A stretch of 64,000 nt of DNA from positions 1-64,000 of the forward strand of contig JYFJ02000861.1 in assembly GCA_000934665.2 (NCBI GenBank), read 5' to 3'. The notes under the pieces are model-generated. The model made no database searches, had not been told where the DNA came from, and saw only the letters and a program-made list of their open reading frames with translations. The translations under genes were made by a program, and so were the position numbers. Below, in pieces: positions 1,089 to 59,590 of the stretch; position 1 is the first letter of the stretch; every line of letters begins with the position of its first letter. This stretch comes from Catajapyx aquilonaris. Lineage: Eukaryota.

Positions 1089-1189
1089 CTTAGCCTCAAA
1101 CTCCTTGAACTGCCTCTCCCTCTCCTGCCTATACTTCTCGACCTCAGCCTGGGCCTCCTCCTTGGCCTGCTTCAGCCGACGAGCCTTGC
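1089..1189 (-). CDS. ATP6V1G: V-type proton ATPase subunit G, coding exon 2 ([34 protein letters not shown])
   Basis: ttttgcag acceptor and AAG|gtacgt donor on the minus strand; 101 nt, phase 1 to 0. Translation is the conserved subunit G coiled coil. The final coding exon was not found in 1-1088, so it presumably lies left of the window. Confidence 0.96.
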
Positions 1190-1231
1190 CTGCAAAATCA
1201 GAAAACCCATGTCACAAATCTGCTACTACAT

Positions 1232-1241
1232 GTCATGTGAC
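1232..1241. promoter_or_regulatory. CLEAR/M-box-type MiT-TFE (Mitf/TFEB) site GTCATGTGAC in V-ATPase G intron
   Basis: Exact GTCATGTGAC, one base from the CLEAR palindrome GTCACGTGAC and containing the M-box core TCATGTG, in a V-ATPase gene, a known MiT/TFE target class. Confidence 0.6.
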
Positions 1242-1330
1242 TCCTGCCTTCCTCATTCACTCCCATCCCTCAAACCCGGCATCAACCCTCCAAAATTTCT
1301 GATCCCACACATGGGCCATAAATCACGTAC

Positions 1331-1412
1331 GCTTCCTGGCTTCCGAGACCTTCTCTGCGGCCCTCTTCTCCGCCGCCAAGAGCTGCTGAATTCCCTGCGT
1401 CTGGCTCGCCAT
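1331..1412 (-). CDS. ATP6V1G: V-type proton ATPase subunit G, coding exon 1 ([27 protein letters not shown])
   Basis: ATG at 1412-1410 in AAG ATG G context; 82 coding nt, then C|gtacgt donor. The exon begins at 1421 after a tttgcag acceptor. A probable 61-nt 5'UTR intron spans 1422-1482 (gtgagt donor). The sequence is the canonical subunit G N-terminus (Vha13/ATP6V1G family). Confidence 0.97.
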
Positions 1413-1438
1413 CTTCCAGTCCTGCAAATCAGCTGAAA

Positions 1439-1446
1439 TCACGTGA
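1439..1446. promoter_or_regulatory. CLEAR-type E-box TCACGTGA in the 5'UTR intron of V-ATPase G
   Basis: Exact TCACGTGA palindrome ~27 nt upstream of the ATG. A CRE palindrome TGACGTCA is nearby at 1485-1492. Confidence 0.55.
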
Positions 1447-1482
1447 GACGGACCAGGTTGGCCAGGCGAAGGGGACACTCAC

Positions 1483-2042
1483 TCTGACGTCATCCAATAC
1501 CGTCAACAACTCATCACCAGACAATTACTCATTCCGACGCCCAATTACTCAACAATTTATCTTTATTATCGGACCCAGCATTGTTGCTCATATTTCCACA
1601 CGGCACAGCATTTAAAAAGAAGGGGGGGCGCAACATTACACCAGCCCAGCACGCGCTTGGACCACATACTCATAGAGTTGGAACTGCAGACTCCCCAAGC
1701 AGTTTTCTAAAATGGTCTGGTGAGCATTGCTGCGTCGCATTAATTTTTCTTTTAATGTTTTTTGGTGCGTACGGTCTGTTGAATATTATACGGTCGGCCT
1801 TGAGCAGTGGCGCCACCTGCAGGGGGAGAGGTACAGGAACTTCCCGCCAGGTGGCAGCAGGAGCTGGGGTGTGGTTTTTTGACGAGGGCACGGACGAGAG
1901 ATTGGAACACTTTTGTACTGTGTACTATTATCGCCTATCGCCAGCCAGCCCCACCGTTTTATCTGCGGCTATAGCCAGTGGACTTTGATCCAGGCAAGGC
2001 TTATCAGGCTATTAGCGGACAAAAAGGTGGTATTTCTAGTCG
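1483..2042. promoter_or_regulatory. Probable bidirectional promoter region with the non-coding first exons of V-ATPase G (-) and PINCH (+)
   Basis: CpG-retaining, GC-richer segment bounded by oppositely oriented splice donors: minus-strand gtgagt at 1482 and plus-strand cg|gtgagg at 2043. Confidence 0.55.
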
Positions 2043-3103
2043 GTGAGGGGAGTGTGTATGAAAGGGAGGGAATGACGAAAATGAAAGAGAGAAAAAAGAG
2101 CTTGTGACCTAGAAGTGAGTTGTGGGCGGGGACGTGTGGATTGTGCACTCCTTTTATGGTCAGGCTTCGAAGGGCTTGGCCATTATTGTGTGCCCACACT
2201 TTAACTCGTTACTTGAGCCATTGTTGCGGGAAATTACAGACTTGCCGCTCTGAAAAGGTAGAGACATGACCACACGAGCGGTTAGTACGTGAAGGGCATG
2301 TAAATGACAGGTGTAGTTGCAGTGCATGGGAAGTCCGGATGGCTCATATTTAAATAAAGAACAAGTTGCAGACTTTTGCACAATTTTAGTACTGATTATT
2401 GCGTCGGTGTAAGTACCAGCATTGGCTTATCTGAGGTGAAATGTATTTGGACGTAGCTTTTAATTAATACGCAAGAAGTAAACACTAATTTTTAACAGTC
2501 ACCGTCATTAACTCTGGTGAGAACGTAACAATTAGTGCTCATCATTGTGTAACAAGAATGTGTAGATTTACCGTAACTTTGGGTCAGGTGTCTGTTAAAA
2601 AATAGTTTACTGAATGATCATTACCATGATGCATCATAATAATTATACTGATTACTAACAATATAAACTGACACTGCATACCTTGTGCCAACAAATGATT
2701 TCCAAACATAGCACACCCCTGAGCTAAGCTAAGGGTTTTAACACATACAGTCTCATTATAATTTAGAGAGCACAGTGGTCATTAATATTACTACTGTGGT
2801 GGAGTTACAACTCGATTAACATGGTTTTGTAGAGTATTCCAGTAAAGTAGGTGCTTGATAACATTTTTGGTTCACAGATTAAGTAAGGAAGAAGCAATAA
2901 CTATTACCATACGTCTTAACATTACATGTAAACAAAATATTAATGTGAAGGATAAAGGAATAACATAAATAACGTAGAAGATAAAGTGAGATATAACATG
3001 CGTTTCTGAATTGAAGTATCAATTTCTTTTGCAGTTTCTGAGCCAAGTTTGGCAACAATTTCTTGTAATCCCTTGAGAGGTCACCAAAAATTGCTTCTGA
3101 GAG

Positions 3104-3111
3104 ATGCCGGG
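3104..3111 (+). CDS. LIMS1: PINCH/LIMS, first coding segment (M-P-G) at the end of exon 3035-3111
   Basis: tttcttttgcag acceptor at 3034; ATG CCG GG|gtgagt. The phase-2 donor joins in frame to the exon at 3875, giving a total CDS of 1029 nt (342 aa). The in-frame ATG at 3888 is an alternative start. Confidence 0.7.
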
Positions 3112-3264
3112 GTGAGTAATATTAATGACACTGCCATTTTCTGCAGTAAAGCTGCCCATAATGACTGTACAGTACACATTGGGTGCCTTATCGCCCCATG
3201 GCTGCTTCTGAATGTTATCAGGGACTAGGCTGATAAGAGTGTATGAGTTTTGTGCCTGGTTGCA

Positions 3265-3509
3265 ATGTCGGATCAGGAGAGACTTTTAGGGGAGTCAGCC
3301 GAAAGGTTGCACTTGAGATCACCCACAGGGAGTCACTTGTGGCAGAGGAGGAAGCTCAGTAATGACGAGCTTGATAAGGGTACTAAGGGTGATTATGATA
3401 ATGTTGGAGCTGCTTCCCGCATGTGTGAAGATGAATCTGGGCCAGACTACCAACTGCTGGAGGTTCCTACTCCTGCTCCTTCCACTCGCACAAGCCGGAG
3501 AAAGCATGG
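3265..3509 (+). CDS. Candidate alternative N-terminal exon of PINCH (MSDQERLLGESAERLHLRSPTGS...RTSRRKHG)
   Basis: 81-codon open, charged and disorder-like stretch ending CAT GG|gtaaaa, a phase-2 donor compatible with the exon at 3875. Confidence 0.5.
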
Positions 3510-3874
3510 GTAAAAGCCATGAAGGTGGTAATATATATATATATATATATATCAATTCGGATGTGTGAACTGTAACCTCAGGATGGAAGGCACTGAAATT
3601 TTTCAGTTTGACAAGAGTCCTACTTATGAGTTGCAGTTGACAATAGAGAATGACCTGGCATTGCAACAGTATGGCAAGGTTATGCATCATTAATACAAAT
3701 CTGTGCAGTGGTCTTTGAAGAATGTGGCAGGTTATTATTACATCGTACACTGACCATACTATGAGCAGGAATTAGGTTTTAAGAGAATAGCAGGGTTTGT
3801 TTTATGATCCATATTTCAATTTATTACCTTTCAGAACTGTTAGATAAATTTTTAATGGAATATCCCTCTTTCAG

Positions 3875-3985
3875 TGTTGCTGAGAACATGGAGGTGATGT
3901 TCTGCTCCCGATGCGGAGAAGGATTTGAACCCCATGAAAAAATTGTCAACTCCCAGGGGGAACTGTGGCATCCACAATGCTTTGT
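3875..3985 (+). CDS. LIMS1: PINCH/LIMS exon, start of LIM1 (VAENMEVMFCSRCGEGFEPHEKIVNSQGELWHPQCFV)
   Basis: cctctttcag acceptor, GT|gtatgt donor, 111 nt, phase 2 to 2. LIM Cys/His spacing closely resembles Drosophila steamer duck (stck). Confidence 0.96.
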
Positions 3986-4383
3986 GTATGTATTGCAAGG
4001 ATATTAGTTTATAATTTGTAGTTAATAATATTAATGGTAATAATAATAGTAGTAGTAGTAATAAAAATAAAAATAATGCACTGACCTTATGTGAGCTACA
4101 TTTTGTGGATCATTCAAATAAGTAAGGTAATTTTGAAATGCCACAAGGTGTCTGCGTTAGAGAAGTTCATGCTTATAAACGGTCTGTCTGAAGTTCCTAA
4201 ATTATTGTCCTAAATAGTACTCTATAAGTTTCTGAAGTCCCTATGAATGGGCCATGATGAGCATCCTAAAATGCTCAGTGGGACTATGTACACAATTGTG
4301 GATTTTTTAAAAAGGATTGTAATATTTGTAGTACTGTATTATCAGGTGGACTAATTTTTGGCATACTCTTTATTTGTTTTCAG

Positions 4384-4948
4384 ATGTGCCCAGTGTTTTC
4401 GCCCCTTCCCTGAGGGTGTTTTCTATGAGTTTGAGGGACGCAAGTATTGCGAGCATGATTTCCATGTCTTGTTTGCTCCCTGCTGCAACCGTTGCAATGA
4501 GTTCATTATTGGGCGTGTCATAAAAGCCCTGAATGCCAACTGGCACCCTGCTTGCTTTCGCTGCCAGATCTGTGAGAAGGAGCTTGCTGACCTGGGTTTC
4601 ATACGCAACCAGGGTCGTGCCCTGTGCCATGATTGCAACGCTCGTGTCAAGGCAGAGAGCCTGGGCCAATATATTTGCCAAAAGTGCCATGGTCTTATTG
4701 ATGGAGCTCCATTGCGATTCAGAGGTGAAGTTTTCCATGGCTACCACTTCAATTGTGCAGCATGTGGGATTGAGCTGAATGCAGATGCTAGGGAGGTGAA
4801 GAGTCGTCCTGGATACACTGCCAATGATATGAATGAATTGTACTGCTTGCGGTGCCATGACAAGATGGGTATACCTATATGTGGGGCATGTCGCAGGCCC
4901 ATTGAAGAAAGGGTTGTCACTGCCCTTGGGAAGCATTGGCATGTTGAG
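4384..4948 (+). CDS. LIMS1: PINCH/LIMS exon, LIM1 end through LIM4 start
   Basis: ttttcag acceptor, GAG|gtaagt donor, 565 nt. Encodes [26 protein letters not shown]...[23 protein letters not shown], diagnostic of PINCH. Confidence 0.98.
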
Positions 4949-5035
4949 GTAAGTGTGTAGAAATGGCTGCCCATCTTTGAGCAACTGCACTTCTGTTAGT
5001 GCTATGGTGTGTTATATTCCAAGTAAATATTTCAG

Positions 5036-5177
5036 CACTTTGTGTGTGCCAAGTGTGAGAAGCCATTCTTGGGCCATCGCCATTATGAGAAGAAAGGGTT
5101 GGCATATTGTGAGATGCACTACCACCAGTTGTTCGGCAACCTCTGCTTTGTGTGCAATCAAGTCATTGCTGGAGATG
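5036..5177 (+). CDS. LIMS1: PINCH/LIMS exon, LIM4 to LIM5 start ([47 protein letters not shown])
   Basis: atttcag acceptor, G|gtgagt donor, 142 nt, phase 0 to 1. Confidence 0.97.
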
Positions 5178-5522
5178 GTGAGTCAATAGTTTCAATGTAG
5201 TGATCACATTTGTTTCTTCTGCACGAGAAGAATTGCCCAATAATGATGCTGCATTGAGAAAGGAATTTTAGTTTCTACCTGAATAAATTCTGATGTCATG
5301 TGCAATGATAACTTCAAAAACTTGGTGATAAATGCACAGACGTAAAGTGAAAGTAACAAACTTTATGAGAGAGCCATGACAGTTTTCTTATATTGCATAA
5401 TAAGGTGGCATAGGTGCTTTGAGTGTGCCCATTTTCCAGTTTTTTAAATGAATAATGCATTGTAGTGTTAATATCAGTGTGCCATTATGTAATGGAGCTG
5501 AAGGAAATGTTTTGTGTTTCAG

Positions 5523-5725
5523 TGGTGACTGCCCTGAATAAAGCATGGTGTGTGGACCACTTTTCCTGCTCCTTCTGCGATCAGAAACTGAATGCCAAAG
5601 CCAAGTTCTTCGAATATGACATGCGCCCAACTTGCAAGCGATGCTATGAGCGCTTTCCAGCAGAACTGCGTAAACGCTTGCGTAAGATGCATGAGCAGAC
5701 ACCAAGAAAGTCTCCCAGCACCTAG
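5523..5725 (+). CDS. LIMS1: PINCH/LIMS last coding exon, LIM5 and basic C-terminal tail
   Basis: tgtttcag acceptor, phase 1. Encodes [22 protein letters not shown]...[30 protein letters not shown], then TAG. Confidence 0.97.
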
Positions 5726-7205
5726 ACACAGGTGACAGGTCCCACCTGTGAGTTTCAATGGTTTCTCTTATAATGTAGTAGCATTCTCATTGATTATCTG
5801 AAGACCTCCAGTGTAAACCTGACCTGGGTTGTACACTTGGTATTTTATTAACCATCAGAGTTTCATCTGTTGTGTGGAGTACCATTTTTTTGGTTTATTA
5901 ATGTTCTTGACCAATATATGAGGATGTAGCAGGCGTTCAGGCCAGTGCTTTATTATTGTGACTACAACATAAACATGCTACTATGTGATTGTGATGCATT
6001 GATGGGTTTTGTAGATTGGGTAGATGTTACGCAGTGTTAGATTGCATGGAAAGCATAATTATCAGGAGTTCTGGAAACAATGAGAAAGGAAATTTTTTCA
6101 TGATAACTGCTGTGTAAGTTAATCGGAGCAGGTGAATAATGAAATGGAAAGGGTTCCAAATTTTTCTTGCCACAAGTGAAAGATTTACTGTAATTTCTCA
6201 TTATTTGTGAATGTTAGGGTGTTGATAGAACAACTTTCATGTACTTGCTTTGGCAGTATGTAAACTGTATTCTTTTTGGAAGAAGCATGGTTTCATTCTA
6301 CTTATTCGTGATGCTATATTTCATGCTAATACTGCAGCAGTCTTTCCAAGTGGAATAAAAACCCATCTGAGTTCATATTTCTTTCTTAGTAGTTGTTAGA
6401 GTAATAAGGCACTGACTGGTACTTCTGTTCTAGCTATTATGGATTGCCATGCTAGTATTTTAAAAATATTAATGTATTGCGCTTGGGATGTTGGGCTGCT
6501 GTGATTGTAATTCACTTAAGCTACTGACCCATGAAGCCTTGGAAAATATGAACGTAACTGATTCAGTTTTCCTAATTAGTGCCAAAGAAGGGGCCTTCCA
6601 ATCTGGGATTTTTTAATGAAATTATTTTTTATAGTGACTGCAATCACTTTTCACTAAGCAATCTACATATTGAATGATAAAGCTATAATTAATTTTTGTA
6701 GTGCTAGATAAGCATTATTGACATCAGTTATTCAACAGACTGTTCAAAGGCCATCTATATTATTTTATTCGTAAGCACTCAACCTGTATAATTTAGATTA
6801 TTATTTCAGTGTTATGCTGTTTGACTACCAAAAGTAAAGGCCCATTTACAAAGAAAGTGACATTGCACCAAGATAAGCAATGTTGCTACTAGCCTTGTGA
6901 TGACATATCTGCACAACTAATATCAAACATATTAGGCATTCGTCACTAGGGAGGCCTCCAAATGTTGCTGCTGACAAGCAGGTTACTTCTTTGTAAACAG
7001 GCCTGCAGCCTTTGGCTGTTGTGAAGTTACTGAATCATTTAAGTGCATATTTCAGTTACCTCATTCTATTTTGTTGGTGTACAATTTATTTAAGTTTGAT
7101 GTTTTAAAGTGGTGCCCCTGCATATGAAATAGTAATGCTCTCTTGTTTTGCTTTTGCTTTTCAAACCTTTCCTTCTCTGTAGGAGCAAATACCATTTTGA
7201 AATGG

Positions 7206-7917
7206 CACTCACAAGGGAAGTGTTTGTAGGGGTATCGGCCAATCGGCCCGAAAATTACACTTCTGGTAAATCGCAGGCCAGAAATTCATTGGTGAAAATA
7301 AAAAGTGCCAATAGCCAAGCGTTATGAGCAATGATAGGTGCATGGTAAACCTGCGCGGTGACAAGGGGTACATTCGGGGTAAGAAATCATAAACAGTCTT
7401 TGTGGCTCAGTCTGTAGAGCAACCGCCTCATGTTCCAAAGTCTCCCCATTCAAGTCCGTGGGAAGCGACTTTCTTTTCCCCCTCTCTCGTCTCAGAGCAT
7501 CGTTTTCTTTTTCTTTTTTTCCCCCCAACACCGTTTATCACCGCATATCTTCCCCTTTGCAATCAGCAGGAATAAAACAGCTTGCTGGGAAGTGCATTAC
7601 TTTTTTTTCTTCTGCTGATGCTTACCTACTCTCTCCATGGCTTCATATTCGGAAAAATGAATAGTCACAAGCTCAGTAAATAATAAAGTATTCATGTCCC
7701 TTCATAATTATTTGTTTACCTGTACACGCTTTCATTTACGGTTGCAGTTTCATTGAGCAGTTATTGCGAGTTGACATCTATCGTTGCTCATATCTCGAAA
7801 ACGCTTGGCTATTGGCACTTTTTATTTTCACCAATGAATTTCTGGCCTGCCATTTACCTGAAGTGTCATTTTCGGGCCAATTGGCCGATAACCTTACAGA
7901 CACTTCCCTTGTCAGTT
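7206..7917. mobile_element. Non-autonomous DNA transposon (712 bp) with ~115-bp terminal inverted repeats, probably CMC (CACTA/Chapaev-like) superfamily
   Basis: Left end CACTCACAAGGGAAGTGT...GTGCCAATAGCCAAGCGTT is the reverse complement of the right end AACGCTTGGCTATTGGCAC...ACACTTCCCTTGTCAGTT. TGG flanks both sides (7203-7205, 7918-7920) as a candidate 3-bp TSD. Superfamily is inferred from the CAC terminus and 3-bp TSD. Confidence 0.8.
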
Positions 7918-9741
7918 TGGTAGTGCTGAGTGTCAAGTCCAAATTTTTGTGTGTTGCATTACTAGCTGCTTTTGCAGTTAACGATAATTCTTACTTAGAC
8001 ATTAATTACTTTATTAGTTATGGCAACCCATTGTGACAAACTTAATGATTAGTCTTATTTACTTGGCTGACAATATGACATAAAGGGTTTGCTACTTGCA
8101 TATGAATCTAAGCACTTATAGCCTTGTGAGATTTATTTTAATTTTATGACACACTGATGCACTAAGGACACTATTTGTTAATACCATAGCTCTATACCAT
8201 AGATTATAACGTACATGTTATGAACACACTTCAAAGGGTTGGTGTTGCATCTACCATAATAATGACCATGCTTAATGCATGCTATGAAGGTGAATTGACA
8301 GGACACATGCTAGCACATTAGTTTCGTTCTACATGGTGTAATTCCCCAGTCAACATACCCTACCGTTTTGAAATTGGGGAAGACTGTCCACTACGCATAA
8401 AATGCTGACTGGATAATTTTGAATGAAATTAATGTCATCAGCATGTATCATGTGAACCCATCTTAATTCTGAAGCATCCAATGGTAATAGCCATTTGTTG
8501 CACAAAATCCTTGATATTTATGAACTGTTATAACAATATATAACATATTTTTAAGAATTTGTTAAATAACCTGATTCAAGGCTTGTCTGCAGTTGCTGTG
8601 ACAACACAGTGACTGAAGAACTGATTGTAAGCACATTTTCTACCCAAACAGAGTTCTGGTATTGTCAAAATTAGTTTGCCAATTGAGGGTATCCCAAATT
8701 TCAGCAATTGTCAATTATTATTAAGTGATCCTGGAACTTGAAAAATTGGAACACCAAGAGAGTACCGGTAGTAATTTCTACATTTTAGTACTCACAAATA
8801 ATGATAGCTTTTTGGAAGCTTAATAACTAACATGTCTCATAAAATTAGTGTTGTTGAAAGTACTGAAACATACTGCCCAAAACTCTGTGTTTGTAGTTAT
8901 GCTATTTTATAATCAAGTCCTTTTTGTCAATCAAAAATGCAATGCTTTTTGTTGTTTCATATATATGATTTTTACTGTCTCAGGATCTTTGGATGCTATT
9001 GTTTTGATTTTTTAATGCTGAGTGTGTATAATGATATTAACTGCATACAGTCCTAAAATTCAAGTGATGACTTATTTGAAGGACTGCACCATTTATTGCT
9101 TGTGGGTTAATTATTGTATGTTCGTTACATACAAGTCCAGGTAGTTGACAACTGGTTTCTCTGCCACCAAACCTCTTTTTTAGCAGTGCAATGTAGATGC
9201 ACATTGCAGGGCAGTGAAACAACCGAGAAGAAATTAGTAGATATTTTAGTACTCAGAATTATCTTGAGTGCTATGCTTGATATGGATTTGAAAATGCCTA
9301 AATTCAATAGTTTGTTTTATATAAAGATGTAAATTACATGATAAAATAACTTCATTGCTTCATGGGAGATTATAAGCCAGATGACTATGCAAATGCCTGC
9401 CTTTTGCCATGATCATTGGTCGTCCATGATACAGATTTATGAACTGACATGCCAAGTAATTTCCCCTAATATCCTGCAATTTTAACAAGAGTTTTTAGCT
9501 TGCCGTGACCACGAATAACAATATAAAATATTTTAATACTGTTGACTCAGATCCTGTATTCTTATAGTAGTTGTTTAGGGCACAAATGCAGTCCAGAGTT
9601 TATCAGATGGCTAAGCAAGTTTTTACAGGTTTGTAAACTTGTATGAATGAGGATAAGGGTTGAAATTTTAGCCTTGGCCCTACACACAATATTAAGAGAG
9701 TGACCCATAATTTGTGTGGGCTATTTAACATAACCACATCG

Positions 9742-9824
9742 AATAAAATGCCATTATTACCCTCTTCTAGTGCCTAAGAAACTGCCCTGCTTTAGAAATG
9801 TTATATTTTGTCTGTTTTAATAAA
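9742..9824 (+). terminator. Candidate distal polyadenylation signals of PINCH (AATAAA at 9742-9747 and 9819-9824)
   Basis: AATAAA hexamers coincide with the end of the AT-rich, CpG-depleted domain that follows the PINCH stop. A proximal AATAAA lies at 6354-6359. Confidence 0.35.
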
Positions 9825-11835: not shown

Positions 11836-12055
11836 ATGCGGGACTCGACGGCGGCGTGTCCGTGGACCCAGCAGCAGCAGCAGTCGCAGCCGCAGCAGCA
11901 CCAGAGAGACAACAGTGCCAGCAGCACCAGCAGCGGGGGGAGGAGGAGGAGGCCGGAAGATATGGTGGACAGCGTCCGGCTTGTGGTGCTCAAGAGGCCC
12001 CCGGATCAGTCCGGAGGGGGGTTCGGGTTCAGCATCAAGGGCGGGAGAGATGCAG
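11836..12055 (+). CDS. WHRN: Whirlin/dyschronic first coding exon, start of PDZ1 (…VRLVVLKRPPDQSGGGFGFSIKGGRDAG)
   Basis: GFGFSIKGG PDZ carboxylate-binding loop; G|gtagga phase-1 donor. The first in-frame ATG after the stop at 11764 is 11836; an alternative ATG is at 11962. The exon probably starts at 11519 (ttgtgcag), with an upstream non-coding exon ending at 10932 (aag|gtgagt). Confidence 0.85.
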
Positions 12056-12095
12056 GTAGGATCGATGCACCTAACACATGGTCAGCTACATTATA

Positions 12096-12311
12096 CAGGG
12101 GTGTACCCATGTTGACCCCAACTGTTCCGTCCTTGTGCAGTACCACACTTTGCAAACGTATTGAACGCGGGCCGGGCTATTGTTTCTTTTTTTTATTGGA
12201 ATCGATGCACAGTAGGCTTAATAAAACCTGATGGAGACACACGAGTCATGCGAAGGGGCAATAATGTTTGGGCCCCACATTTAGACGGCTGGGTCAACAT
12301 GTCCGCACCTC
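12096..12311. mobile_element. Degenerate Tc1/mariner-type MITE
   Basis: Left end TA|CAGGGGTGTACCCATGTTGACCCC, with an imperfect inverted copy GGGTCAACATGTCCGCACC near 12291-12309. The right terminus is eroded. Confidence 0.4.
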
Positions 12312-14442: not shown

Positions 14443-14484
14443 ACAACAACACCAACACCAACAACAACAGCAGCAGCAGCAGCA

Positions 14485-14542
<58 letters not shown>

Positions 14543-14548
14543 ATAATA

Positions 14549-14619
<71 letters not shown>
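14443..14619. repeat. Compound trinucleotide microsatellite (ACA/CCA)9 (GCA)5 (ACT)19 (AAT)3 (GAT)23
   Basis: Read directly from the sequence. It accounts for the homopolymeric poly-T/D/L/M/H/S/V ORFs in the track. Confidence 0.97.
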
Positions 14620-34968: not shown

Positions 34969-34995
34969 TACTGTACAGTACTGTACTGTACAGTA
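34969..34995. repeat. Stacked TA-CTG/CAG-TA units resembling repeated Tc1/mariner excision footprints
   Basis: TACTGTACAGTACTGTACTGTACAGTA read directly. The footprint origin is inferred. Confidence 0.55.
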
Positions 34996-48900: not shown

Positions 48901-51391
48901 TCGCAGATATAAACTGACAAGGGCTGACGCATTGATGTCGAAGGACGAGGTGGTTGCCCCCCCCAGAAGGTCCCTTCAAGATATTCAACAGCTTCGTGCT
49001 TTTCTCCGGATTTCGTCAGCACTCCGAATGAGCCAGACCGCTTTAGGTAATGCGTCAACATCACGACCAAGGGTATTTCCGTATTCCGACACACCAGGAT
49101 AGGGCTATAGAGAGTGGCAGTTTAAATGCGTAGGTTTGAAACAATGTCAAAATATTCTCGCGTGATTGATGAAATCAGTGAACTCGGCAAAAATAATTTA
49201 TGCCACGAAATTCAGAATGAAATCTAGAAAGTAAGAGGTAGACTAATCGATGGCGAATTTCCGCTTGGGTCGTCTAGGAAACTCGCTTCCTGATACAACA
49301 TCGATCCCATGCAATGATTTGATGGCGTTATAAACCTTGGGATTCCCTCGCCGATATTCCGTTTTTAGTGAAATGCCTCCCCCTTTTCCCTCCCATTTTT
49401 ACTGGATCGTATTATACTTCATGCCCGTATTATCTCGAGATTGAAACATATATTTGCCTGAGGCTTTCCAGGTTCGTATTAAGTCGTTGGCAGAAATTCT
49501 CCAGCGCCGTTTATTTCTCCTGACCGATAGTAGATCGATTTTTAATGATTAGAGATTTATGGCTGACATTTTCCGTCATGAAAATTCGTCGTTGTTGCCA
49601 TTTTTAGGCAGTAAAATTAATTTTCATTTGTACAGGATCAGTGGTTGTCTTATTGAAATGTGAACGCTATGTAATAAATCGGTGTGGGTCACTGCTCATT
49701 GGAGCTTATATTAGTTGGATATGTTATCGGAATAGGTTTTTTTTGTAACACAATAATTTGATGTGACAACGTGACATCACTTTGAAGTTACGTAATTACT
49801 TTCGAAAATTAAAGCCTCGAGGCCAACCGTGCCTCTGAAATGTTCTCAATTTTATTCAAATTTTTTGCTGAACGTCTTCTGCCTTTAACTCCCCGAATTA
49901 GTGCTCCAGGCGTTGCCCAGGGGCTGATCATTGCATTCTTCGTCACGAAACCTATCCATCATGGGCGTACGCAGGGAAGGCTTTTCCAAGCATGAGCCCA
50001 AATCCAAATTCACTAACATTGTCCAGTACGTCCGAGGTCCTCCCTCCTCCACCTTTCCAAAATGGACTATCTTTCGCCTTTATACACACTTTTGAGCTAT
50101 GTTGAGCCAGGATGTGGAAGGGGGCCAGGAAAGAGAGGATGCTCCAGAATCTAGAACATCCTCCAAAATGAATATTAAATCCAAACCACAGCCACAGCCA
50201 TGATCCTGTCATTGAAATCATGTTGAAGGCTTCTCAGCCATATAGGATGTTCCTACTCTGATCCCATTTTTTAAACTTTGCAAATGGGGCTTAAATCTTG
50301 GCTCAGAAAGTAGCCTACTGGCGTATATCTTACTGTGCTTGAGGCATAGCACGACTGGCACTTTATAGTTATAATGTATAAAATCACGGTAAAATATAGA
50401 AGATTGTCGATATTAGTTCAAGATTTACACTGCTTACCAGATTGTCCAGATATCATGAGCTCATAACATTATTCTTTCTTTGTTGAATACACTCCACACG
50501 ATACACTGAACAAAGGTTTGCTTGCCTTTCTTTGGAATTATATCAAATTTTACTATCACTTACAGTGCAACTTTCAGATATGCTGGTTTAGTGGTTTGAT
50601 ACTGTACTATTACAGGGAATAATTATTGTGATAGCTTACTGGGTGTTGTTGAGTATTACATAATTCATGTGATTTATTTGTCTGAACTGAGAGTTTGACG
50701 AGTGAGTAGCCGTCACGCAGTCTAGGCTGATCATCAAGAGTGTTGTGCCAGGAATCGCTTTGGATGCTTGAGGCTTTAAATGAAAATAAACTGTACTATA
50801 CTTTTTTAAGGAATTTAAATCTAGAAATTTTCACAAACTACTTTTTGCACGTCATTGCGCGTTATTTTCTCGTCGGTCTTTGTTTGACTGAATGTTACTA
50901 ACGCCTTAAATCGCCTTAAATGCAGTTGCACTGTAGAATTTATTATACAGGCTATAGTTACCTTCTCTATAGTCTGGAGGCTAGGAATGTTTGAGTGCCT
51001 TTGCAAAGTGCTGTTCTTGCCCTTGGACCCCCGAATCAAGAGCCATCCTGGCAGTAAATTAACGGCCTGCTGGCGAACCTTATTTCGCCTAGGTTACGCA
51101 GATGAGGAGCCAAGATTTGCACCATTAGGATGGCCAATCCCGGCAGGGTACAAATTTCCTGTGGGGCTCTTTGCTTAATTAAAACACATTGATCCGACCA
51201 CGTGGAGTGCACTGCATGTAACATGTCGGGTCTAATTCTTCTTGTGTGAGTTGTGTATATTAGCTACTGTATAGTTTCACTGCCTCAGTTTCCCCCCAAT
51301 TTGTTGATCTGTCGATGCAGCCGGGCAACAATATCCAGATGATAATCACGTTGTGCTTGCGTCGGACCTGACCGAATTACGACTCTTTCAG

Positions 51392-51561
51392 ATGGGCGAC
51401 CAGATCATCGAAGTGAACGACCAGAGCTTTCTGGAGGTGACACACGACCAGGCTGTGCAAGTGCTCAAGTTTTGCAAGAGGATGAGACTGACTGTGCTGG
51501 ATGTGGGCAAGATCCCCCATTCCCTTACTGCCTACGAACCCATGGGAAGGCATAGTCCCAG
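51392..51561 (+). CDS. WHRN: Whirlin exon, PDZ2 second half (MGDQIIEVNDQSFLEVTHDQAVQVLKFCKRMRLTVLDVGKIPHS...)
   Basis: ctctttcag acceptor, AG|gtgagc donor, 170 nt, phase 0 to 2. DVG(K/R)(I/L)PH follows PDZ2, as in whirlin. Confidence 0.96.
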
Positions 51562-51926
51562 GTGAGCAAATCTTTTTAAAATATTTTAAAATATTTTAAT
51601 ATTTTAACTGTTTTATTAATCAATTAGTGTCGTGAGATTAAGACGCATTTAAAGCCAAACGTATATAGGTCGTGAATGAAATCAGATTGTTCTGTACACA
51701 ACCTGGACCTGTTGTGTGCCAAATATATGGTACAAATCTAATCTCCAAGTAAGGGGTCTAGACACGACACAGCATATTATCCCGGTCTAGACGCTACATG
51801 GCCCGGGTGTCACATTAGCACTAATTTGGTCAAAGAGGGGAGGTCCCCACAGGAGTATGGTGGAAGGAATGGTTCCAGCTGGCTGGGTTTTACACTCATG
51901 CGACATTTATTTGGCTAAATTTACAG

Positions 51927-52146
51927 CTCTCCCCGACATCGACAGAGCCCTTCGAAACAGCCCGGATCATTCGCAGTGTCTGAGAAGAGCCAAGTGCAGC
52001 AGATGATCGAGGAAAAGGCCACCACGGTGCTCACAAAAAACGAGCACGCTACTCTCAACTACTACCGAGCCGAATATCTGCGGAGACAAGTGCCAGTAGA
52101 AGCCTTCGTTTCATGTCTTCTGGAACTTCTCAACACACCAGATAAG
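51927..52146 (+). CDS. WHRN: Whirlin exon, harmonin-N-like domain first part (…MIEEKATTVLTKNEHATLNYYRAEYLRRQVPVEAFVSCLLELLNTPDK)
   Basis: atttacag acceptor, AAG|gtataa donor, 220 nt, phase 2 to 0. Not in the ORF track. Matches the EHAT-x-x-YY...L-x-ELLNT-x-x-K pattern of whirlin HHD2. Confidence 0.95.
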
Positions 52147-52403
52147 GTATAAGGAACAGACATCATCCGCCTCCAAACAAAGAGACAAACCTGCATTCTT
52201 GAATAACATTAGGAAAATTCACTGTAATCAAAAGCAAAACTTACTAGATGTATCCAAAAATATTGTGTCATGAGAGATCGATATACTGCAATACACTCAA
52301 GGTATGAAGCATGCAGTACACTAAAGTGTAATTGATTCGCCTGCATTGTACTCTGCGAGTTCTATGAAAGCGCGGTTAATTGATTTTCTGCTGTTGATTA
52401 CAG

Positions 52404-52589
52404 TACACCTTAATGACGGAAATTCGCGAGATTGTGGCTCCTGAAGATCGAAACCGATTCGACGAGCTGGTGTTCCGGAGATCAGGTGTCGACGAAAGGA
52501 GAAGCAAGGACCGAGAGAGAGACCGCCATTGGGAGCAGCGAGACTGGAGTCGGGACAGGGAACAACAGAGATATCGGGAAAGAGATAGG
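52404..52589 (+). CDS. WHRN: Whirlin exon, end of harmonin-N-like domain plus R/D/E-rich segment (YTLMTEIREIVAPEDRNRFDELVF...RERDR)
   Basis: gattacag acceptor, AGG|gtgagc donor, 186 nt, phase 0 to 0. Confidence 0.94.
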
Positions 52590-53180
52590 GTGAGCTCTAC
52601 ATTTCCTTTCCTTCTGGTTTTACTTTATTGCTGATTGTCTTGTTTTTGAGGGAAAAAGTTCAGATAGGTTCTGTAATAAAATGTGCAAATTGCAAATCGA
52701 AAAACTGAAGTCATGATATTGTTGTCAGAGGTTTTGATTCTTGTTGTGCCTCATTCGCCTCTGGAGATTTTGGCACCATTTCAGAATTTCTTGCGACTGT
52801 TGTAGGCAGGCCTTCCAAAGCAAGGAAGGTTATTGAACGCTCAAGGCTAAGCGGGATTTCTGAATAGCGCCACAAGCTATACGTGTGGTGTACTTCCATC
52901 CCGTTTCATTCCCCATTTAAAATTGCGAAGCACCGATTGATTACCCCGCAGTGCAAATATTGTCATGCTTTACGCGCTCTACGCGTTGCAATCGCCTAGT
53001 ACGTCATTAGTGCAAAATGAGTTTAATGAAGAACTTGTACTTCATGTTTGTGCACATTGCGGATGCTTCGTTAAGCTTTTAACTACTTCAATAAACGTTC
53101 GTTATTCATCTCTTCAATTGTTAGTAAATTCGATGAACTCTGTGCTTTGTTTCAACAGTTCGGTTACATTTTTTTTTCAG

Positions 53181-53249
53181 CGGAAAGGACCCACCTCACC
53201 TCTTCACAACGAGGGCCTTGTAAATGGTTACCACGAGGGTGCTTCAATG
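53181..53249 (+). CDS. WHRN: Whirlin linker exon (RKGPTSPLHNEGLVNGYHEGASM)
   Basis: Strong tttttttttcag acceptor and ATG|gtaagg donor; 69 nt, phase 0 to 0, open. Confidence 0.8.
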
Positions 53250-56200
53250 GTAAGGGAGCGAATTTTTATTCTTTCCCTTTTCTCCCCTTGATTCAAAGCT
53301 TATTTTCGGCTAAATCTGAAGTGTGCTGATCTGTGGATGTGCTCCACTATTCTCTGGCTACACCCTTGCCCCCCTCCCCTCCCCAGTTCTCCAAAAAGGG
53401 GGGAGTCGAGGGGGGTGAGTTTCCCCGCCTTCCCCCACCCACCCCCATCTTCCTTTGCGCTGTACGGAAGCATATAGTACGACTGGTAACGATTTCCTAG
53501 CTCGGAGATGGTGCTGGTTGGATGTCCACTAGGAAGCTTGGCAGGAATGATATGAATTTATTACACGCCGCTTGCCTGGAAGCTTTTTGGGGAGGGAAGA
53601 GTTGCGCACTAACAATTCCTCCTTTGCCTGCCTCCGCCTGCTTATTGTTATGGTTATTGCCGCCCGTTCCATCTACATACAGCAGCGGGAGGGATGGAAG
53701 ATGCTTCAAGAGTCTTGTTAATCTGCATTGCATCGTAAGTTGCGTTCATTTAGAGGTAGCCAGCATTTTTTGTATGGCCGAGATTTATTGCCTGGCAGAG
53801 GACAAATGGATTTCCGTACCGTCGGTCGTGCTAATAAGATGTCAACACCCGGTGACTTATAATCTGCATTTTCACAATGCCTGTTATGGGCCATAGAGCA
53901 ACGTAAAGTGCAATTTGTGCTTCTTTGTAGACTCTGGAAGTGTAATCTTGTTCAGTCACAAGTAATCTTGCAGGAGCACAATAGTGAATGAGTGATGGCC
54001 AATGATATGATCAGATGATCTCGTAATGACGTTCATCACTGCAACGTCAAATGTAGTCGATTAATTGCTAGTCTGATAATAATCAATAAGAAAGTCTAGA
54101 GCATGCACGAGATCCGCCGATTCCTCATGGAATGGCCTGGAAATTTTCTTGGTGGAACATTGCGACGGTATCTATCCCTGCCAACGTCCTGAGGCAAAAG
54201 AAGCGCTTCCAGTAGCTTAGCCAAAGTAATTGGGAAGAAAAGCATCTGGTGCAACGCGCCGCTAAACAAACCCGTAAAAAAATAGAAGAAACCAAATAGG
54301 GCAGGCTCAGGCACGTCCAGGCTTCTTGGAAATGAGATTGGCGCCGTTCGGGACTGGACATCCACCTCCACCTTGGTCCTTCTTTTTTTTTGGTTTCTAT
54401 TTTATTTTAGTTTCTCTTTGGCTCCCTTTGTTCTTAACGAGGCTCTCTGCTGGATGGGACTAATGCCAGAGAGCCACGAAAACCTCTTTGAACGAGGCTT
54501 ACAGAACGTTAGAGTAAACACCACTGAAGCTTGCATTTAGAGCGGGATAATTCTGACTTCCAGAGAGCTCATTAAGACCTGTTTCTTTTTTTATAACACG
54601 GTAATTGGTTTGTTGTTTCAATTGATTAATTTCTTGGTACATTATAAACTCCGGAATCAGACTTAACCTGCGAGACATGCTTTATGGCACACACTCTCCC
54701 AGATCCTGAGTATCCTCCTCGGGTTGGCTGCTATTATTGCAGAAAATTTGCATAGGAAAGCTTGCGATTCCAGCAGTATATAAGTTGAATCCGTCCATGG
54801 TTGCTCGAATTGGGTACTGGATTTCCATGCAGCTGGGGATAACACGAATTCATGCTGCGCATTTTAAAATGTTTTGGCACGCTCTAGAGGGCCCACGTTG
54901 AAATATTTTTTTGCGGTACAGGCTTATAGTTAGTTTTTTTTGTCGTTTAGTGTAGCGGTAGATGGTGATGCCTTTGTGGCTGAATAGATATTACGGCTTA
55001 GTTTGACAGCTTGTTTCGTGAGCGAGGCTCGCGTAGTTGCTCTTAGAAAACAATTTATTATTTAGGGTTCCGTAGCTTTGCATGCTGTGAAGCATCGTCC
55101 CTATAGGCGCAATTCCAAGACATTTCAGGAAGCTCGCGTCAATTCCCACGATTCTTGGAGCTTTTGCCATGATGGAAAACACTACCTTCATTTAGGTTAG
55201 ATGTAGCATACTGCTAGGCATGTTAAGTTTAAATCGGACGAGGAAATGTGACACCTTGTGTTTGACATGTGCATTTTGTTATCTAGTATCTATACTCATG
55301 TTCTTATTCATTTTCAGTGTGTGGACGTATAAGTCATACTGATTCTCGAATTGTGTCGTAATTGCCCTTTTGCAGTTACAGTAAAGTTCTACATTATAGG
55401 AATGGCAACACATTGTGCAATTTATATGGAAAAAAACGAAAATGTCAAAATCATAACTGCTGCGGTTAAATCTATAAATGTTCCTGCAGCTTCATTCATT
55501 AAAATGTGTGCCTTTAACTATCCTGACGGACCACATGTCGCGCAAAGGCTTATAACTTCTTGAAGGTTTCACGCAAATCGTCATTGAATAAATTGTTGGT
55601 AATGAAAATGATAATAACTGGGGAATGTACACACAAGGTCCTGAGGAGGAGACTTGGCTGGCATGATGGCGGCGAGTCCTTTGTATCACTGTGTAACACT
55701 GTACTTTGCTAATGCATGTTGAGGGACCAACGAGGCTTTTTAAGCAGAGAGAGACCAAATCAGAGCAAAAAATATGAAACATCCGTGCACTCTGTTATAA
55801 TGCGATCCTCACACAAACCCTTCCTGCGCACCGTAGTTTCAGCTTGAAAAACACCTCTACCTCCATATTCCTGGAACAAAACAAACCTTTCTACGAGACA
55901 AAAAGGGATAAACATGTCTTCGACACTTCGTTTGGTGCCGAAAGTCATGTAGCATTGTTATTTTGGAGTAGAAGTATAGTTGTAGTGCACACCCGCCAAA
56001 ATAACTATACTGTACATTATATCACAGTATTAACAACTGGGCTAATGTGACTGTTGCCTATATCTTCTTCTGGGACGTTAAAACTTTAACAAGAGTTACA
56101 TGTGAGGCGAATTTTGTATTAAATTATGACTTCTTAGAAGATGACAATTCCCGTCGAAAATGTGTAATAGCCTATTATTATACAGATATTGGAAATTGAT

Positions 56201-58807
56201 ACACCTGATACTGTATTTAACTGATATAATGGAATATAATGGAAAAGGATTAAAATGTAGAAGGTGACCGCTGCAGCATTGAGCTTATTGTTAGACCTAC
56301 ATGTTCATTACTTTTGCAATGATACGTTAAGGACTGGATTGAATGAAACATTTTACAGTAGTTCATAACTTTCAATAATTTTGAAGATCTATACCAGGGA
56401 GGTTTGACTTTTGTATGTTCGTCACCCTCACAATGAACAGAGGAGATCAATTTTTTTGCAGCTTGAATGTGTCATTATGTGGGGCTATTGTATTTTTCAG
56501 TACCGGTATTTTTAATAAGACTGTAGCATTAAAAATAGGTGCCCTACATTTCTAACGTAAGTTGTCGATTTAGTGGCCAATGAGATGTCATCAGAAAAAC
56601 CGACTGTACGAATGTTAAGGACATCACAAAGTGAAGCCATTTATTGCACTTAATCTACCGTAGTGCAAAATTGATTTGCACCAAATTACTCCATATACAG
56701 CTGTAGAAGGTCACTAAAAGTCAGTATTGATGGACGTCTAAAATTATTCCGCTTGTGTGACTCGCATGGGGCTTAACCCATACGCTGCCTGTCATACATC
56801 GGCAGGAAAGCAGTAAACAATATTTATGAAACTACAGTTTTCCCCGCAAATTTTGTCATCCAGTTCTAGCTCTGCTGTATAGAGAGCGACCACCTTACTT
56901 TAAGGTTACTGCAACAGGCCCTAATTCTGCAATAAATACTAATTAACAAAATTACAATAAGTAGTGGCGTAGACGCAGCATGATGGTACATTGTCCCTCA
57001 TCGTCTTATAGGTCCGTAGCCCTGTGCGTAGTAGGCCCCGGAAGCCCTCTCCTTACTCTGGTGCTGTGGCTCCGAGTAGTTCTCATCTCGAACCCCAAGG
57101 CTTCGGTACCCCAAGCGACGATTCAGGGGTCGATTTGGCCAATGGCAGCTCTAGGGGCAGTAGGTGAGCCCTTAGATCCTTTTATATACTCATCTACTAT
57201 CATCATTTCTAGTACTTCCTCGCTATACTTACTGCATCCCCCTTTTGTTCTTTTTCTCGTGCTGTAGTGGCAGATATTTCGGAGGGATTTAGGAATTCAG
57301 CGCTATCGCTCGTTTGTTGGTATTTTTTACGCAGGCACGCCTCTTTCAAATAGCAGGTGACCTCAGTAGACTGCAGGCCTTTTCTTCCATACCGCTATTT
57401 AAAGTATGATAGCCTGCTTAAAATTTTTAAATAAACCAGTAGCTGCTCGAAGACTATAAATCGCTCCGTATATGTAGATGTACTGTACACGTAGATTATG
57501 AACCCTTCTTTCATTTTTCTGGACTATAGATTAGAAGAAATATTATTAGTGCTTGTAGATGAGCAGGTTATACCAACCCCCGTACAGTACACATTCAATT
57601 AATTATTGTGATGTTTGTACATTTTTGGAGCCGGATTCACTGAGGGGAAATACGTCACGGTTCACGCTTGCATAACGAGCGATTGTACCAGCCGGGGCCT
57701 AAATACAGTAGTTACACTACATGCGCCGCTTCAGAGTGATTTCTGCAGAGATGAGAACAGAAATAGCGAATTCCTTTTTAAAATTATTTCCCATTAAATC
57801 GACTTATTCGGCTTAACATTGCTAACACGAAATTATTGCCTCAGTAATGTCAACCGTGCGGATAGTAGCTACTAAGTATCTATTTTGTATTACTGATTAG
57901 AAATAGTATTAATGCGAATAATTTGTTACGCTCTTCATATGAAACCATCATGTTCGAGCTCATATCTCGAGCCACTCCAATGAGTAACACCGTCCAATGC
58001 TCCTCCAGCAGTGCAAGGCATTACGGAAATGCTGTAATATTTGGAGTTACCAACTTTCATTACTCTCATATTCAAACACGCCCATTATGTGTTATGCCCA
58101 ATCGACATCATATCGTTCCTAGTGAATTGTGACTAAACGACTACGCAATAATGAAAGTGACCACATATTTCAAATTGTACATAGATGCCATTTTTCGATA
58201 TTTAAAACTACCAAAATGGTTTTTAAAGCCTCAGTTTATGCCTTACACTTACATTACTTTGAATGTTGGCAATTTTTTCTGGTAATTTATAGTGGAATAT
58301 TGCCTTTTGGGGTGGTCTACCAGGTAGGCCTACAATGCTACATCATGTGCAGGAACGGGGCATGTTCAAATCTATCCTCATGTAATAAGTTGGTAACGAA
58401 AATTAACTCTGCCGCCACACGCGTTAAGATATATATTATTAAACTGCACATCGACTCGATTTATTACGCGATGTTGCAAATGGGCCGTCACCGGAACCAC
58501 AGAGGCATTTCCGACTTTGATCGTCAATCATGTTACACAGATAAGCCTGCCAGCTCTTCAACTTGTTGCCGCCCGAGGGCCAAAAAAAAACTCTTCTTCC
58601 TAGTGAGTTTCATCAGTTTGCTCGCATATGAAGTACGCCTGCGAGAGCACTGGGTGGGGTAAAAATGTAAGGAAAAAAACTAGCAAATCCGATTTTCTCC
58701 CCGAGGTGAATCCGAGCCCTGTTGCATTGAAGAGACCAAAAAAAAATGCCGTTTCCCTCTGGAGAGTTCCAATTGACATTGGTTTTGTGCTCTGCCCGCT
58801 ATTTCAG

Positions 58808-58928
58808 AAGGCGCAGTAAAGAATCCCGACCATCCGAGTCTAAAGGTAGCCAAAGCCAATGGTCTCCTCTCACCATTACCTCTGATTTGGCGCTCTCTTT
58901 CGACGAAGAGATTGATTCTGCACATCAG
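58808..58928 (+). CDS. WHRN: Probable whirlin linker exon (RRSKESRPSESKGSQSQWSPLTITSDLALSFDEEIDSAHQ)
   Basis: atttcag acceptor (NAGNAG alternative at 58811) and CAG|gtactt donor. Entered in phase 2 it is open and exits in phase 0, in frame with the next exon. Confidence 0.7.
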
Positions 58929-59365
58929 GTACTTTACTTGTATGTCTCTCTCACTTGTACGTAACTAAACCTCGTTATCCTTTCTCTCTCTCTCTTTTCT
59001 CTCCTTTTTGATGTTTACACCTTCAAACAAAATAAGGGTTAAGTTGTTCCCTGCTGCTGCTGGCTTCCGCTCAATCTGAGTGCTTCACTCTCGTGTTCTT
59101 CGGTGTTCGTGTGTGGTGGGTGTTGCATGGCAGCTTGTTCGGTGTGTAAATGTTCTCTGTTTTAGCTGGGTCCTTTTTGGCGACGGTTTTCCACCCCACA
59201 TACTCATATTTTTTGATGTTCTGAAGAGAAGCGTTTTGAAGCACTCTCAGAATTTTTTTAGACCACGGATCGAAGTGTCGGAGTGAAGCGCTGACATATT
59301 TGGAGTGTTACGCTTCATTTGTGCAGTTTCTGTTGTCTTACATTGCTTGTGCACCGGAACTTTAG

Positions 59366-59590
59366 GAGTATGCTGCGGCCAGGGCGGGACGAATGCCAAC
59401 ATCAGTGTCGGCGTCGGCCAACGTTGGAGGCATCCCCCTCGACGAAGGCCCTTCTCCGATTCATGGACGAACCAGCAGAGGACCCATCGGAAGCCCCTTG
59501 TCCAGCAGGACGCCTCCTCCACATTCTATGCACAGAGAACCAGCCTACCAAACCTACGGAACCGTTGATGCGGGAGACTCCGAAGCCCTT
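59366..59590 (+). CDS. WHRN: Probable whirlin Pro/Ser-rich linker exon (EYAAARAGRMPTSVSASANVGGIPLDEGPSP...DAGDSEAL)
   Basis: ctttag acceptor, CTT|gtaagt donor, 225 nt, phase 0 to 0. GC-rich island with Pro/Ser-rich content, as expected between HHD2 and PDZ3. Confidence 0.75.

Follow-up and report, generated by a model that had tools for sequence, protein, structure and literature searches.

The window analyzed here, a stretch of 64,000 nucleotides of the genome of Catajapyx aquilonaris (contig JYFJ02000861.1), carries the genes for V-ATPase subunit G (minus strand), PINCH (plus strand) and whirlin (plus strand), in that order. From ATG to ATG, the distance is 10,424 bp between subunit G and whirlin and 2,476 bp between subunit G and PINCH. 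Between these genes, none of 65 open reading frames of at least 50 amino acids reaches the Pfam cut-off (one weak match has an E-value of 0.003), and there are no Rfam matches in the window. Coordinates and frame search therefore agree with a preliminary description of this DNA, which placed subunit G and whirlin on opposite strands about 10 kb apart with PINCH as the only gene between them. The same description called the two genes head-to-head, a term that does not apply, as PINCH intervenes and itself faces subunit G, with whirlin standing in tandem behind it. A 5'-5' arrangement over a short spacer is found for subunit G and PINCH (2.5 kb) but not for subunit G and whirlin.

The first two coding exons of subunit G, exon 1 (1331..1412, minus strand, ATG at 1412) and exon 2 (1089..1189, minus strand), match Pfam V-ATPase_G (PF03179) above the cut-off, with 34.9 and 38.8 bits, respectively, and have GT-AG splice sites. 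Coding exon 3 is located on a separate contig (C2995:984-1151). The predicted product has 116 amino acids, and the three subunit G matches in the genome are the three exons of this single gene. The contig break falls within intron 2, where a 155-bp stretch (93..247) is 100% identical to C2995:739-585; as this overlap occurs at these two places only, the two contigs can putatively be joined, with unshared tails at both contig ends. Intron 2 also contains a MITE-like palindromic repeat (434..859) with inverted arms that are 89-93% complementary, and 137 matches to this repeat are spread over many contigs. Intron 1 is 141 bp long; intron 2 has a length of at least 1.2 kb, to which the MITE-like element contributes 0.43 kb. 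C2995 also carries a methyltransferase-like frame, for which all naming leads are under 0.9.

PINCH (3888..5725, plus strand), an orthologue of LIMS1/2, has four coding exons that encode 335 amino acids without an internal stop, and its top PDB matches are PINCH/LIMS1. Its coding introns are all shorter than 400 bp and the gene is CpG-depleted (CpG observed/expected 0.38). In the spacer that separates the divergent genes subunit G and PINCH (1413..3887), TCACGTGA at 1439-1446 and TGACGTCA at 1485-1492 are located immediately upstream of the subunit G ATG. An E-box in this vicinity would be a candidate Mitf/TFEB site, but the number of E-boxes in the spacer is not above chance (two observed; 20 of 100 shuffles reach two). 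In the PINCH 3' region and the DNA ahead of whirlin (5726..11835), the CpG observed/expected ratio is 0.33 up to about 9.8 kb and then steps abruptly to 0.85. Whirlin itself is CpG-rich, with a sharp border to the CpG-depleted side near 10 kb, and the CpG-rich DNA ahead of it is, judged by composition, likely to be its own putative promoter region.

The whirlin model comprises 15 exons (11836-69981 of the contig) encoding 778 amino acids, with GT-AG sites at every intron, no internal stop, about 56 kb of intronic DNA and a provisional start codon. The window contains 11 of the 15 exons (11836..59590, plus strand), which encode PDZ1, PDZ2, HHD2 and a low-complexity region; exons 12-15, including PDZ3, follow on the plus strand of the same contig beyond the window (68508-69981). 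Domain matches at residues 50-139, 192-280, 312-392 and 672-762 give the order PDZ1-PDZ2-HHD2-PDZ3 that is common to Drosophila dyschronic and the vertebrate whirlin family, Pfam PDZ is found on three of the exons, and a single copy of the gene was detected in the genome. The identity across the domains with termite whirlin is 66%, although the C-terminal tail differs from that of winged insects. In contrast to other members of the family, the Catajapyx N-terminus is short: HHD1, present in deuterostome and mollusc whirlins, is absent from the model and was not detected upstream of it either, and a tblastn search of 5.8-11.8 kb with 10 insect whirlins found no upstream exon with the insect N-terminal motifs under E 1. 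In the domain tree set, the eight rows of the insect clade also lack HHD1, as do the millipede and the barnacle, which suggests an arthropod trait and is not evidence against orthology.

The assignment to whirlin rather than PDZD7 is upheld by phylogeny. In a domain tree (45 rows, 351 columns) the gene groups with WHRN with a split of 100/100; the whirlin clade holds one teleost and one amphioxus whirlin, and the other clade holds gar PDZD7 and a Saccoglossus PDZD7-like cluster. The trees use the domains only; their rows, 45 in one and 48 in the other, were chosen manually among the matches, with MPDZ-like and fragmentary rows excluded and no named vertebrate harmonin (USH1C) included. The PDB matches agree: in a search to E 1, whirlin is the sole match for the PDZ3 exon (4/4) and the HHD2 exon (1/1), counting one PDZ3 match titled KIAA1526, which we take to be whirlin. 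On sequence grounds, the PDZ gene is a true whirlin orthologue.

In human, WHRN and ATP6V1G1 are divergently transcribed neighbours on 9q32. In a mouse table without strands, Whrn and Atp6v1g1 are consecutive on chromosome 4, 48,886 bp apart (PMC4546649), and a window list for cattle also supports their adjacency in mammals (PMC12075139). These two sources support, for mammals, the adjacency that the preliminary description stated for human. The likeness between the Catajapyx locus and the mammalian AKNA-WHRN-ATP6V1G1-TMEM268 locus lies in orthologous whirlin and subunit G genes placed close together, and in their divergent orientation if the human arrangement given above is correct. Unlike in mammals, PINCH is located between the genes in Catajapyx, and the distance is 10 kb, against 49 kb in mouse. 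None of the neighbouring genes on the two joined contigs was recognized as AKNA- or TMEM268-like, and the sole Erf4-family match sits on a different contig, a position that is uninformative about linkage.

A stronger signal than the pair itself may come from its surroundings. The same locus carries PPT2, VPS52, RPS18, endophilin B, SNAPIN, VAMP4 and IVNS1ABP, and the human orthologues of the neighbours are mostly placed in MHC paralogons, with nine of the 13 genes recognized over the two joined contigs on chromosomes 1, 6p21 or 9q. From the identity of these neighbours, the locus would be a segment of the proto-MHC linkage group in which gene order has changed little. In amphioxus, 432 genes of this group share a single chromosome that corresponds to human chromosomes 1, 6, 9 and 19; they are scattered along it and not clustered, in contrast to the Catajapyx locus (PMC13012124). 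VPS52 and RPS18 are arranged head-to-head about 1.0 kb apart, some 13 kb beyond the end of whirlin on the same contig, and correspond to bilaterian block 1148, found in seven species (Robert et al., 2022; PMC8851819, file 4). Old adjacencies thus do survive in this genome. No arthropod occurs among the 28 rows listed for the block, and its third members (FOXRED1, DDAH, WDR46, CEP350) were not recognized on the Catajapyx contig. The amphioxus VPS52 and RPS18 genes belong to two different blocks, and their gene numbers are remote from each other and from those of subunit G, so membership of the linkage group is not clean everywhere. The amphioxus gene numbers of SNAPIN, dynamin and subunit G are close to one another, and subunit G has dynamin on one side and on the other an unlabelled gene, Bfl_015349 / Alu_ref_016028 / Bbe_013126, in block 1048 of PMC13012124 Dataset S2; the Catajapyx dynamin gene lies on a contig other than the two joined ones, which is likewise uninformative.

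We favor the reading, with a probability of roughly 0.47 for the whole, that the locus is a little-rearranged part of the bilaterian ancestral linkage group from which the MHC paralogons of vertebrates arose. On that group, subunit G and whirlin would probably have been near neighbours, and their closeness in Catajapyx and in mammals would have been kept passively by slow local rearrangement, not by regulation of one gene by the other. PINCH would have arrived later from another linkage group and taken the place opposite subunit G, breaking any 5'-5' contact between subunit G and whirlin. The ancestral adjacency, taken separately, seems slightly better supported than its opposite. The orthology of whirlin together with the consecutive mouse genes, the VPS52-RPS18 pair and MHC-paralogon-type neighbours on the same locus, the nearby amphioxus numbers of SNAPIN, dynamin and subunit G, and the small subunit G and PINCH introns with the CpG border near 10 kb all argue for this reading. 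The dynamin and unlabelled flanks of amphioxus subunit G and the separation of VPS52 and RPS18 there weaken it. PINCH as an ancestral member, one of two options in the preliminary description, is disfavored, since its gene numbers are 4,000-11,000 from those of subunit G in all five amphioxus species; a later insertion of PINCH seems more likely.

The linkage itself is in hand for two lineages, the Catajapyx genome and the mouse table. Whirlin and subunit G are on the same contig in none of the five insect species having both genes, two of which are chromosome-scale. A metagenome set, in which 80 loci were retained of 116 confirmed among at least 595 pattern matches, gave no locus matching any neighbour at E 1e-4 (0/80), a weak result as only 15 of the 80 reach 5 kb. 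Further whirlin records were retrieved for a millipede (Chamberlinius GAB6021900), a horseshoe crab (Limulus XP_022243832), a crayfish (Procambarus XP_069160969), a barnacle (Pollicipes XP_037079236), an annelid (Owenia CAH1787596), a scallop (Argopecten XP_069121383), an abalone (Haliotis XP_048244992), a hemichordate (Glandiceps XP_077987158) and amphioxus (Branchiostoma XP_078685315), none of which yielded a subunit G record. Among the papers listed by our literature searches, none dealt with linkage of whirlin and subunit G in an invertebrate. Among the rows listed from the block table of Robert et al. (2022; PMC8851819), which spans 49 genomes and in which blocks need three genes, the subunit G orthogroup occurs once, in a vertebrate block. 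Ancient microsyntenic pairs are defined by Irimia et al. (2012; PMC3514665) by at least four lineages and at most four intervening genes, of which subunit G-whirlin has one. The proposed retention since the protostome-deuterostome ancestor is plausible but unproven: the orthology of whirlin held, and the link did not appear in the intermediate lineages examined (0/5 insects, 0/80 metagenome loci).

These absences also speak for coincidence within conserved macrosynteny, in which neither gene left the ancestral chromosome that they shared, each was moved about on its own, and the two came close on separate occasions in vertebrates and in this arthropod. We regard this as a serious contender at somewhat less than even odds. 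Under full mixing, 12-44 such coincidences are expected per genome (3-11 with matching orientation), and the pair was selected after the fact for its match to mammals. The three vertebrate paralogues of subunit G multiply the neighbours able to match, and subunit G and whirlin are not adjacent in Catajapyx. Moreover, as both genes apparently belong to one well-kept ancestral linkage group, a chance meeting is much likelier than the genome-wide null suggests. On the other hand, the chance per locus of one further human-adjacent pair among the 10 remaining close pairs is only 3-9%, assuming 432-600 genes on the linkage group and with inputs that are partly assumed, and a proven old pair, VPS52-RPS18, lies nearby. 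The orientation matches too, if the human genes are indeed divergent. Winged insects rearrange gene order heavily, so that the absent linkage there weighs little.

A constrained regulatory unit, either a genomic regulatory block (GRB) or a shared promoter, could also tie subunit G to whirlin, as the preliminary description proposed, but we consider this distinctly unlikely. Housekeeping-type, CpG-depleted genes do stand next to one CpG-rich gene with large introns, and the majority of conserved ancient pairs have a 5'-5' layout (Irimia et al., 2012; PMC3514665). PINCH, however, breaks the 5'-5' contact, the link is broken in the five insects, and in mouse the distance between the two genes is 49 kb. 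In a GRB, it is the bystander gene that bears the enhancer-holding introns (PMC3514665), whereas in Catajapyx the introns of subunit G and PINCH are small, one of them occupied in large part by the MITE-like element, and the extensive non-coding DNA lies within whirlin itself. Furthermore, whirlin is a PDZ scaffold and not a developmental transcription factor. Compared with the pairs and GRBs described by Irimia et al. (2012), the locus has neither a trans-dev gene nor a large-intron bystander.

Wrong orthology or a mis-assembled contig is hardly credible: the contig does break inside subunit G intron 2 with unshared tails, and harmonin is missing from the tree, but subunit G exons 1-2, PINCH and whirlin share one N-free contig, 95-100% of the words of 1000-6000 are present in four DNA runs (from one sample, possibly the source DNA, and so not independent), and tree and PDB both indicate whirlin.

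If the adjacency is ancestral, the known bilaterian microsyntenies, several hundred in number, gain one more pair, and this lineage becomes a useful, slowly rearranging witness to the local proto-MHC order that is scattered in amphioxus. The VPS52-RPS18 block would also be extended to arthropods. Such adjacency alone would reveal no new mechanism; only a demonstrated regulatory link to whirlin, a Usher-syndrome gene, would do so. A more far-reaching proposal, which we think unlikely, is that subunit G-whirlin is an uncatalogued bilaterian pair under selection for more than 600 million years, within a proto-MHC piece of about 115 kb (subunit G, whirlin, PPT2, VPS52-RPS18, endophilin B, SNAPIN, VAMP4 and IVNS1ABP) that is nearer to the ancestral order than amphioxus.

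Our exon models bear out the gene order proposed in the preliminary description, with V-ATPase subunit G on the minus strand and PINCH and whirlin on the plus strand. The window covers bases 1-64,000 of contig C342 (104,136 bases in all), in an animal assembly of 286 Mb and 20,583 contigs. Subunit G, predicted from a profile match and a splice-site model, occupies 1331-1412 and 1089-1189 (minus strand) with its first two coding exons; a genome search gave three matches, one for each exon, with the third exon on a second contig (C2995:984-1151). The two contigs have a 155-bp stretch in common at 100% identity, found at these two places only, and the unshared tails beside it (window 1-92 and C2995:1-584), inside subunit G intron 2, may stem from two alleles or from a local duplication. 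PINCH (3888-5725, plus strand, four coding exons, 335 aa) has PINCH/LIMS1 as best PDB matches. The predicted whirlin model (11836-69981, plus strand, 15 exons, 778 aa) has GT-AG at every intron and no internal stop; exon 11 ends at 59590, the end point of the preliminary description, and PDZ3 lies past the window edge. Its start codon is provisional, as a search upstream of the model for the insect N-terminal motifs found none. Between the three genes, none of 65 frames scored above the Pfam cut-off and an Rfam search gave no matches. The term "head-to-head" is loose: the strands of subunit G and whirlin are divergent, but it is PINCH that faces subunit G across a 2,476 bp spacer; whirlin comes next, in the same orientation as PINCH, and begins 10,424 bp away from subunit G.

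The identity of the PDZ gene as whirlin is upheld by a four-domain tree of 45 rows (harmonin is not among them), in which WHRN and PDZD7 clades split at 100/100. The window protein belongs to the whirlin clade, together with teleost, amphioxus, hemichordate, mollusc and arthropod sequences; the PDZD7 side contains gar PDZD7, a clam protein and a PDZD7-like cluster from Saccoglossus. A grouping outside the whirlins, the outcome that the preliminary description named first as refuting its proposal, does not occur. All four PDB sequences matched by the PDZ3 exon (to E 1) are whirlin, as is the single one matched by the exon of the whirlin domain HHD2. The genome search gave a single whirlin copy; the next-best PDZ match has 37% identity. 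Since deuterostome and protostome whirlins share one clade, the WHRN/PDZD7 split is, judging from these proteins, older than the protostome-deuterostome split. Among arthropods, the window whirlin is not part of the clade formed by the sampled winged-insect proteins: one tree places it as sister to eight insect-clade rows (six named; support 99/97), and a second leaves it in an arthropod fork without resolution, outside a 22-row insect clade. The aphid database proteins P0313 and P0470-P0473 group with the insect whirlins (P0313 in the second tree), so the name "harmonin-like" given by their source looks wrong.

Human WHRN and ATP6V1G1 are presumably located at 9q32 in divergent orientation. 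In a mouse table of a subset of expressed genes, without strands, Akna, Whrn (63,075,944-63,156,985) and Atp6v1g1 (from 63,205,871) are consecutive, the last two separated by 48,886 bp (PMC4546649), and a 0.8-Mb window tabulated for cattle includes both orthologues (PMC12075139). We tentatively favor, at a probability of roughly 0.47, the reading that subunit G and whirlin were kept near each other passively, as parts of an ancient chromosome segment, and that PINCH entered the interval at a later time. Coincidence within the linkage group follows closely.

The wider locus bears on both. Past whirlin, PPT2 (PDB E 2.5e-53 vs 2e-10 for PPT1) and endophilin B span C342:74600-92700. VPS52 (minus) and RPS18 (plus), identified by Pfam at C342:82444-84920 (L006:8444 to L007:920 in sub-pieces of the contig), are head-to-head, and about 1.0 kb separates their start codons, that of VPS52 being putative; their spacer holds two TGACGTCA motifs. 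On C2995, directly downstream of subunit G, lies an unnamed methyltransferase-like gene (sub-piece L010:2272-6988, minus) without a Pfam match, in whose intron a repeat-protein frame (5981-6298, plus) is nested. N6AMT1 is also found past subunit G, and SNAPIN (minus, Pfam), a synaptobrevin (plus) and a kelch gene, IVNS1ABP-like by its best natural PDB match, span C2995:9178-21755. The synaptobrevin N-terminus is what we take to be VAMP4-type; the best PDB scores are to longer VAMP2 chains. SNAPIN and VAMP4 are vesicle fusion proteins, and the two genes here are head-to-head, about 570 bp apart (L011:1251-1820 = C2995:11251-11820).

For nine of the 13 locus genes, the human orthologue presumably maps to an MHC paralogon (1q/1p, 6p21 or 9q), a pattern that N6AMT1 and PINCH, we assume, do not fit. 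The MHC paralogons correspond to a single amphioxus chromosome (432 genes; PMC13012124). In the five-amphioxus block table of that paper, gene numbers are ordered within blocks; the numbers of SNAPIN (Bfl_014937), dynamin (015347) and subunit G (015348) agree, and those of PINCH (022444), VPS52 (030064) and RPS18 (005420) disagree with subunit G. VPS52 and RPS18 are already published as a pair (PMC8851819: "Bilateria novel" block 1148, at least 28 rows, seven species), which occurs in echinoderms (two species), hemichordates (two), a limpet and a brachiopod, and in rows that bear Capitella-style identifiers and are labelled Capsaspora in that table; among the matches listed, none is from an arthropod.

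A common linkage-group origin changes the null for the meeting of a pair. In a chance sketch with assumed inputs (N of 432-600 genes), full mixing would leave a given human-adjacent pair separated by no more than one gene in 0.4-0.7% of cases, with 12-44 such coincidences expected per genome. Requiring the orientation to match lowers this number to 3-11. For one further pair at this locus, with VPS52-RPS18 set aside, the chance is 3-9%. Weighing the sketch against the 197-842 conserved pairs reported per genome (Irimia et al., PMC3514665), discounted for the negative lineage tests, gives an ancestry probability of 0.33-0.94. As the pair was chosen for matching and none of the other lineages lends it support, we set this slightly above even (near 0.55): the case for an ancestral subunit G-whirlin adjacency is fair but unproven.

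None of five insects with records for both genes has them on equal-sized sequence, a comparison that assumes one assembly per species: Periplaneta (209,230,887 vs 180,211,457) and Bacillus (48,679,402 vs 55,548,340) differ at chromosome scale, and Frankliniella, Nicrophorus and Gonioctena at scaffold scale. Among the matches listed, whirlin, PINCH or any other neighbour was found in none of 80 metagenome loci surrounding subunit G, of which 15 reach 5 kb. In amphioxus, subunit G (block 1048) has dynamin on one side and a gene without human label on the other, which could be whirlin or anything else, as the labels WHRN and PDZD7 are absent throughout the six files of PMC13012124. Among the matches listed from the PMC8851819 block table, whose blocks require three genes, the subunit G orthogroup appears once, in a vertebrate block of the elephant shark, and whirlin is absent. 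Among the papers listed by literature searches for the pair and the wider locus, none deals with an invertebrate whirlin-subunit G link. Taken together, these comparisons neither confirm nor exclude the link beyond this genome and mammals.

Low CpG observed/expected marks housekeeping genes in arthropods, through gene-body methylation. This ratio is 0.38 for PINCH, 0.33 for its 3' region, 0.38 for PPT2-VPS52 and 0.49 for RPS18. Over whirlin it reaches 0.80, and the rise comes as a step near 10 kb; read in this way, the contrast marks a housekeeping cluster surrounding one regulated gene, whirlin, with its own predicted promoter. A constrained subunit G-whirlin unit is unlikely. In a regulatory block, the target's enhancers sit in the bystander's introns (PMC3514665), and the small bystander introns here speak against the proposal of such a block (141 bp and at least 1.2 kb in subunit G, including a 0.43 kb MITE; below 400 bp in PINCH), whereas whirlin has about 56 kb of non-coding DNA of its own. 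A regulatory tie between the two genes has little support. The arrangement of the three genes is real, and an artefact is very unlikely.

A TCACGTGA at window 1439-1446, which precedes the start codon of subunit G by 27 bp, is a possible Mitf/TFEB (CLEAR) site, of the type that serves Mitf/TFEB control of V-ATPase genes; the count of E-box-type motifs in this spacer is not above chance. Inverted-repeat (MITE-like) elements lie at window 434-859 (subunit G intron 2; 137 genome matches) and, with 117-nt arms (93%), at 7207-7916 in the region 3' of PINCH. Window 10400-11835 is a possible whirlin promoter and 5' UTR. It contains the motifs CACGTG (10418) and TGACGTCA (10453); sequences resembling a splice donor and a splice acceptor follow near 10930 and 11519, and an upstream ATG opens an out-of-frame reading frame at 11631-11771. 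Four TCACGTGA copies occur in a short repeat at C342:100020-100240, and a stretch of several hundred bases is duplicated near the contig end (C342:101500-103300).
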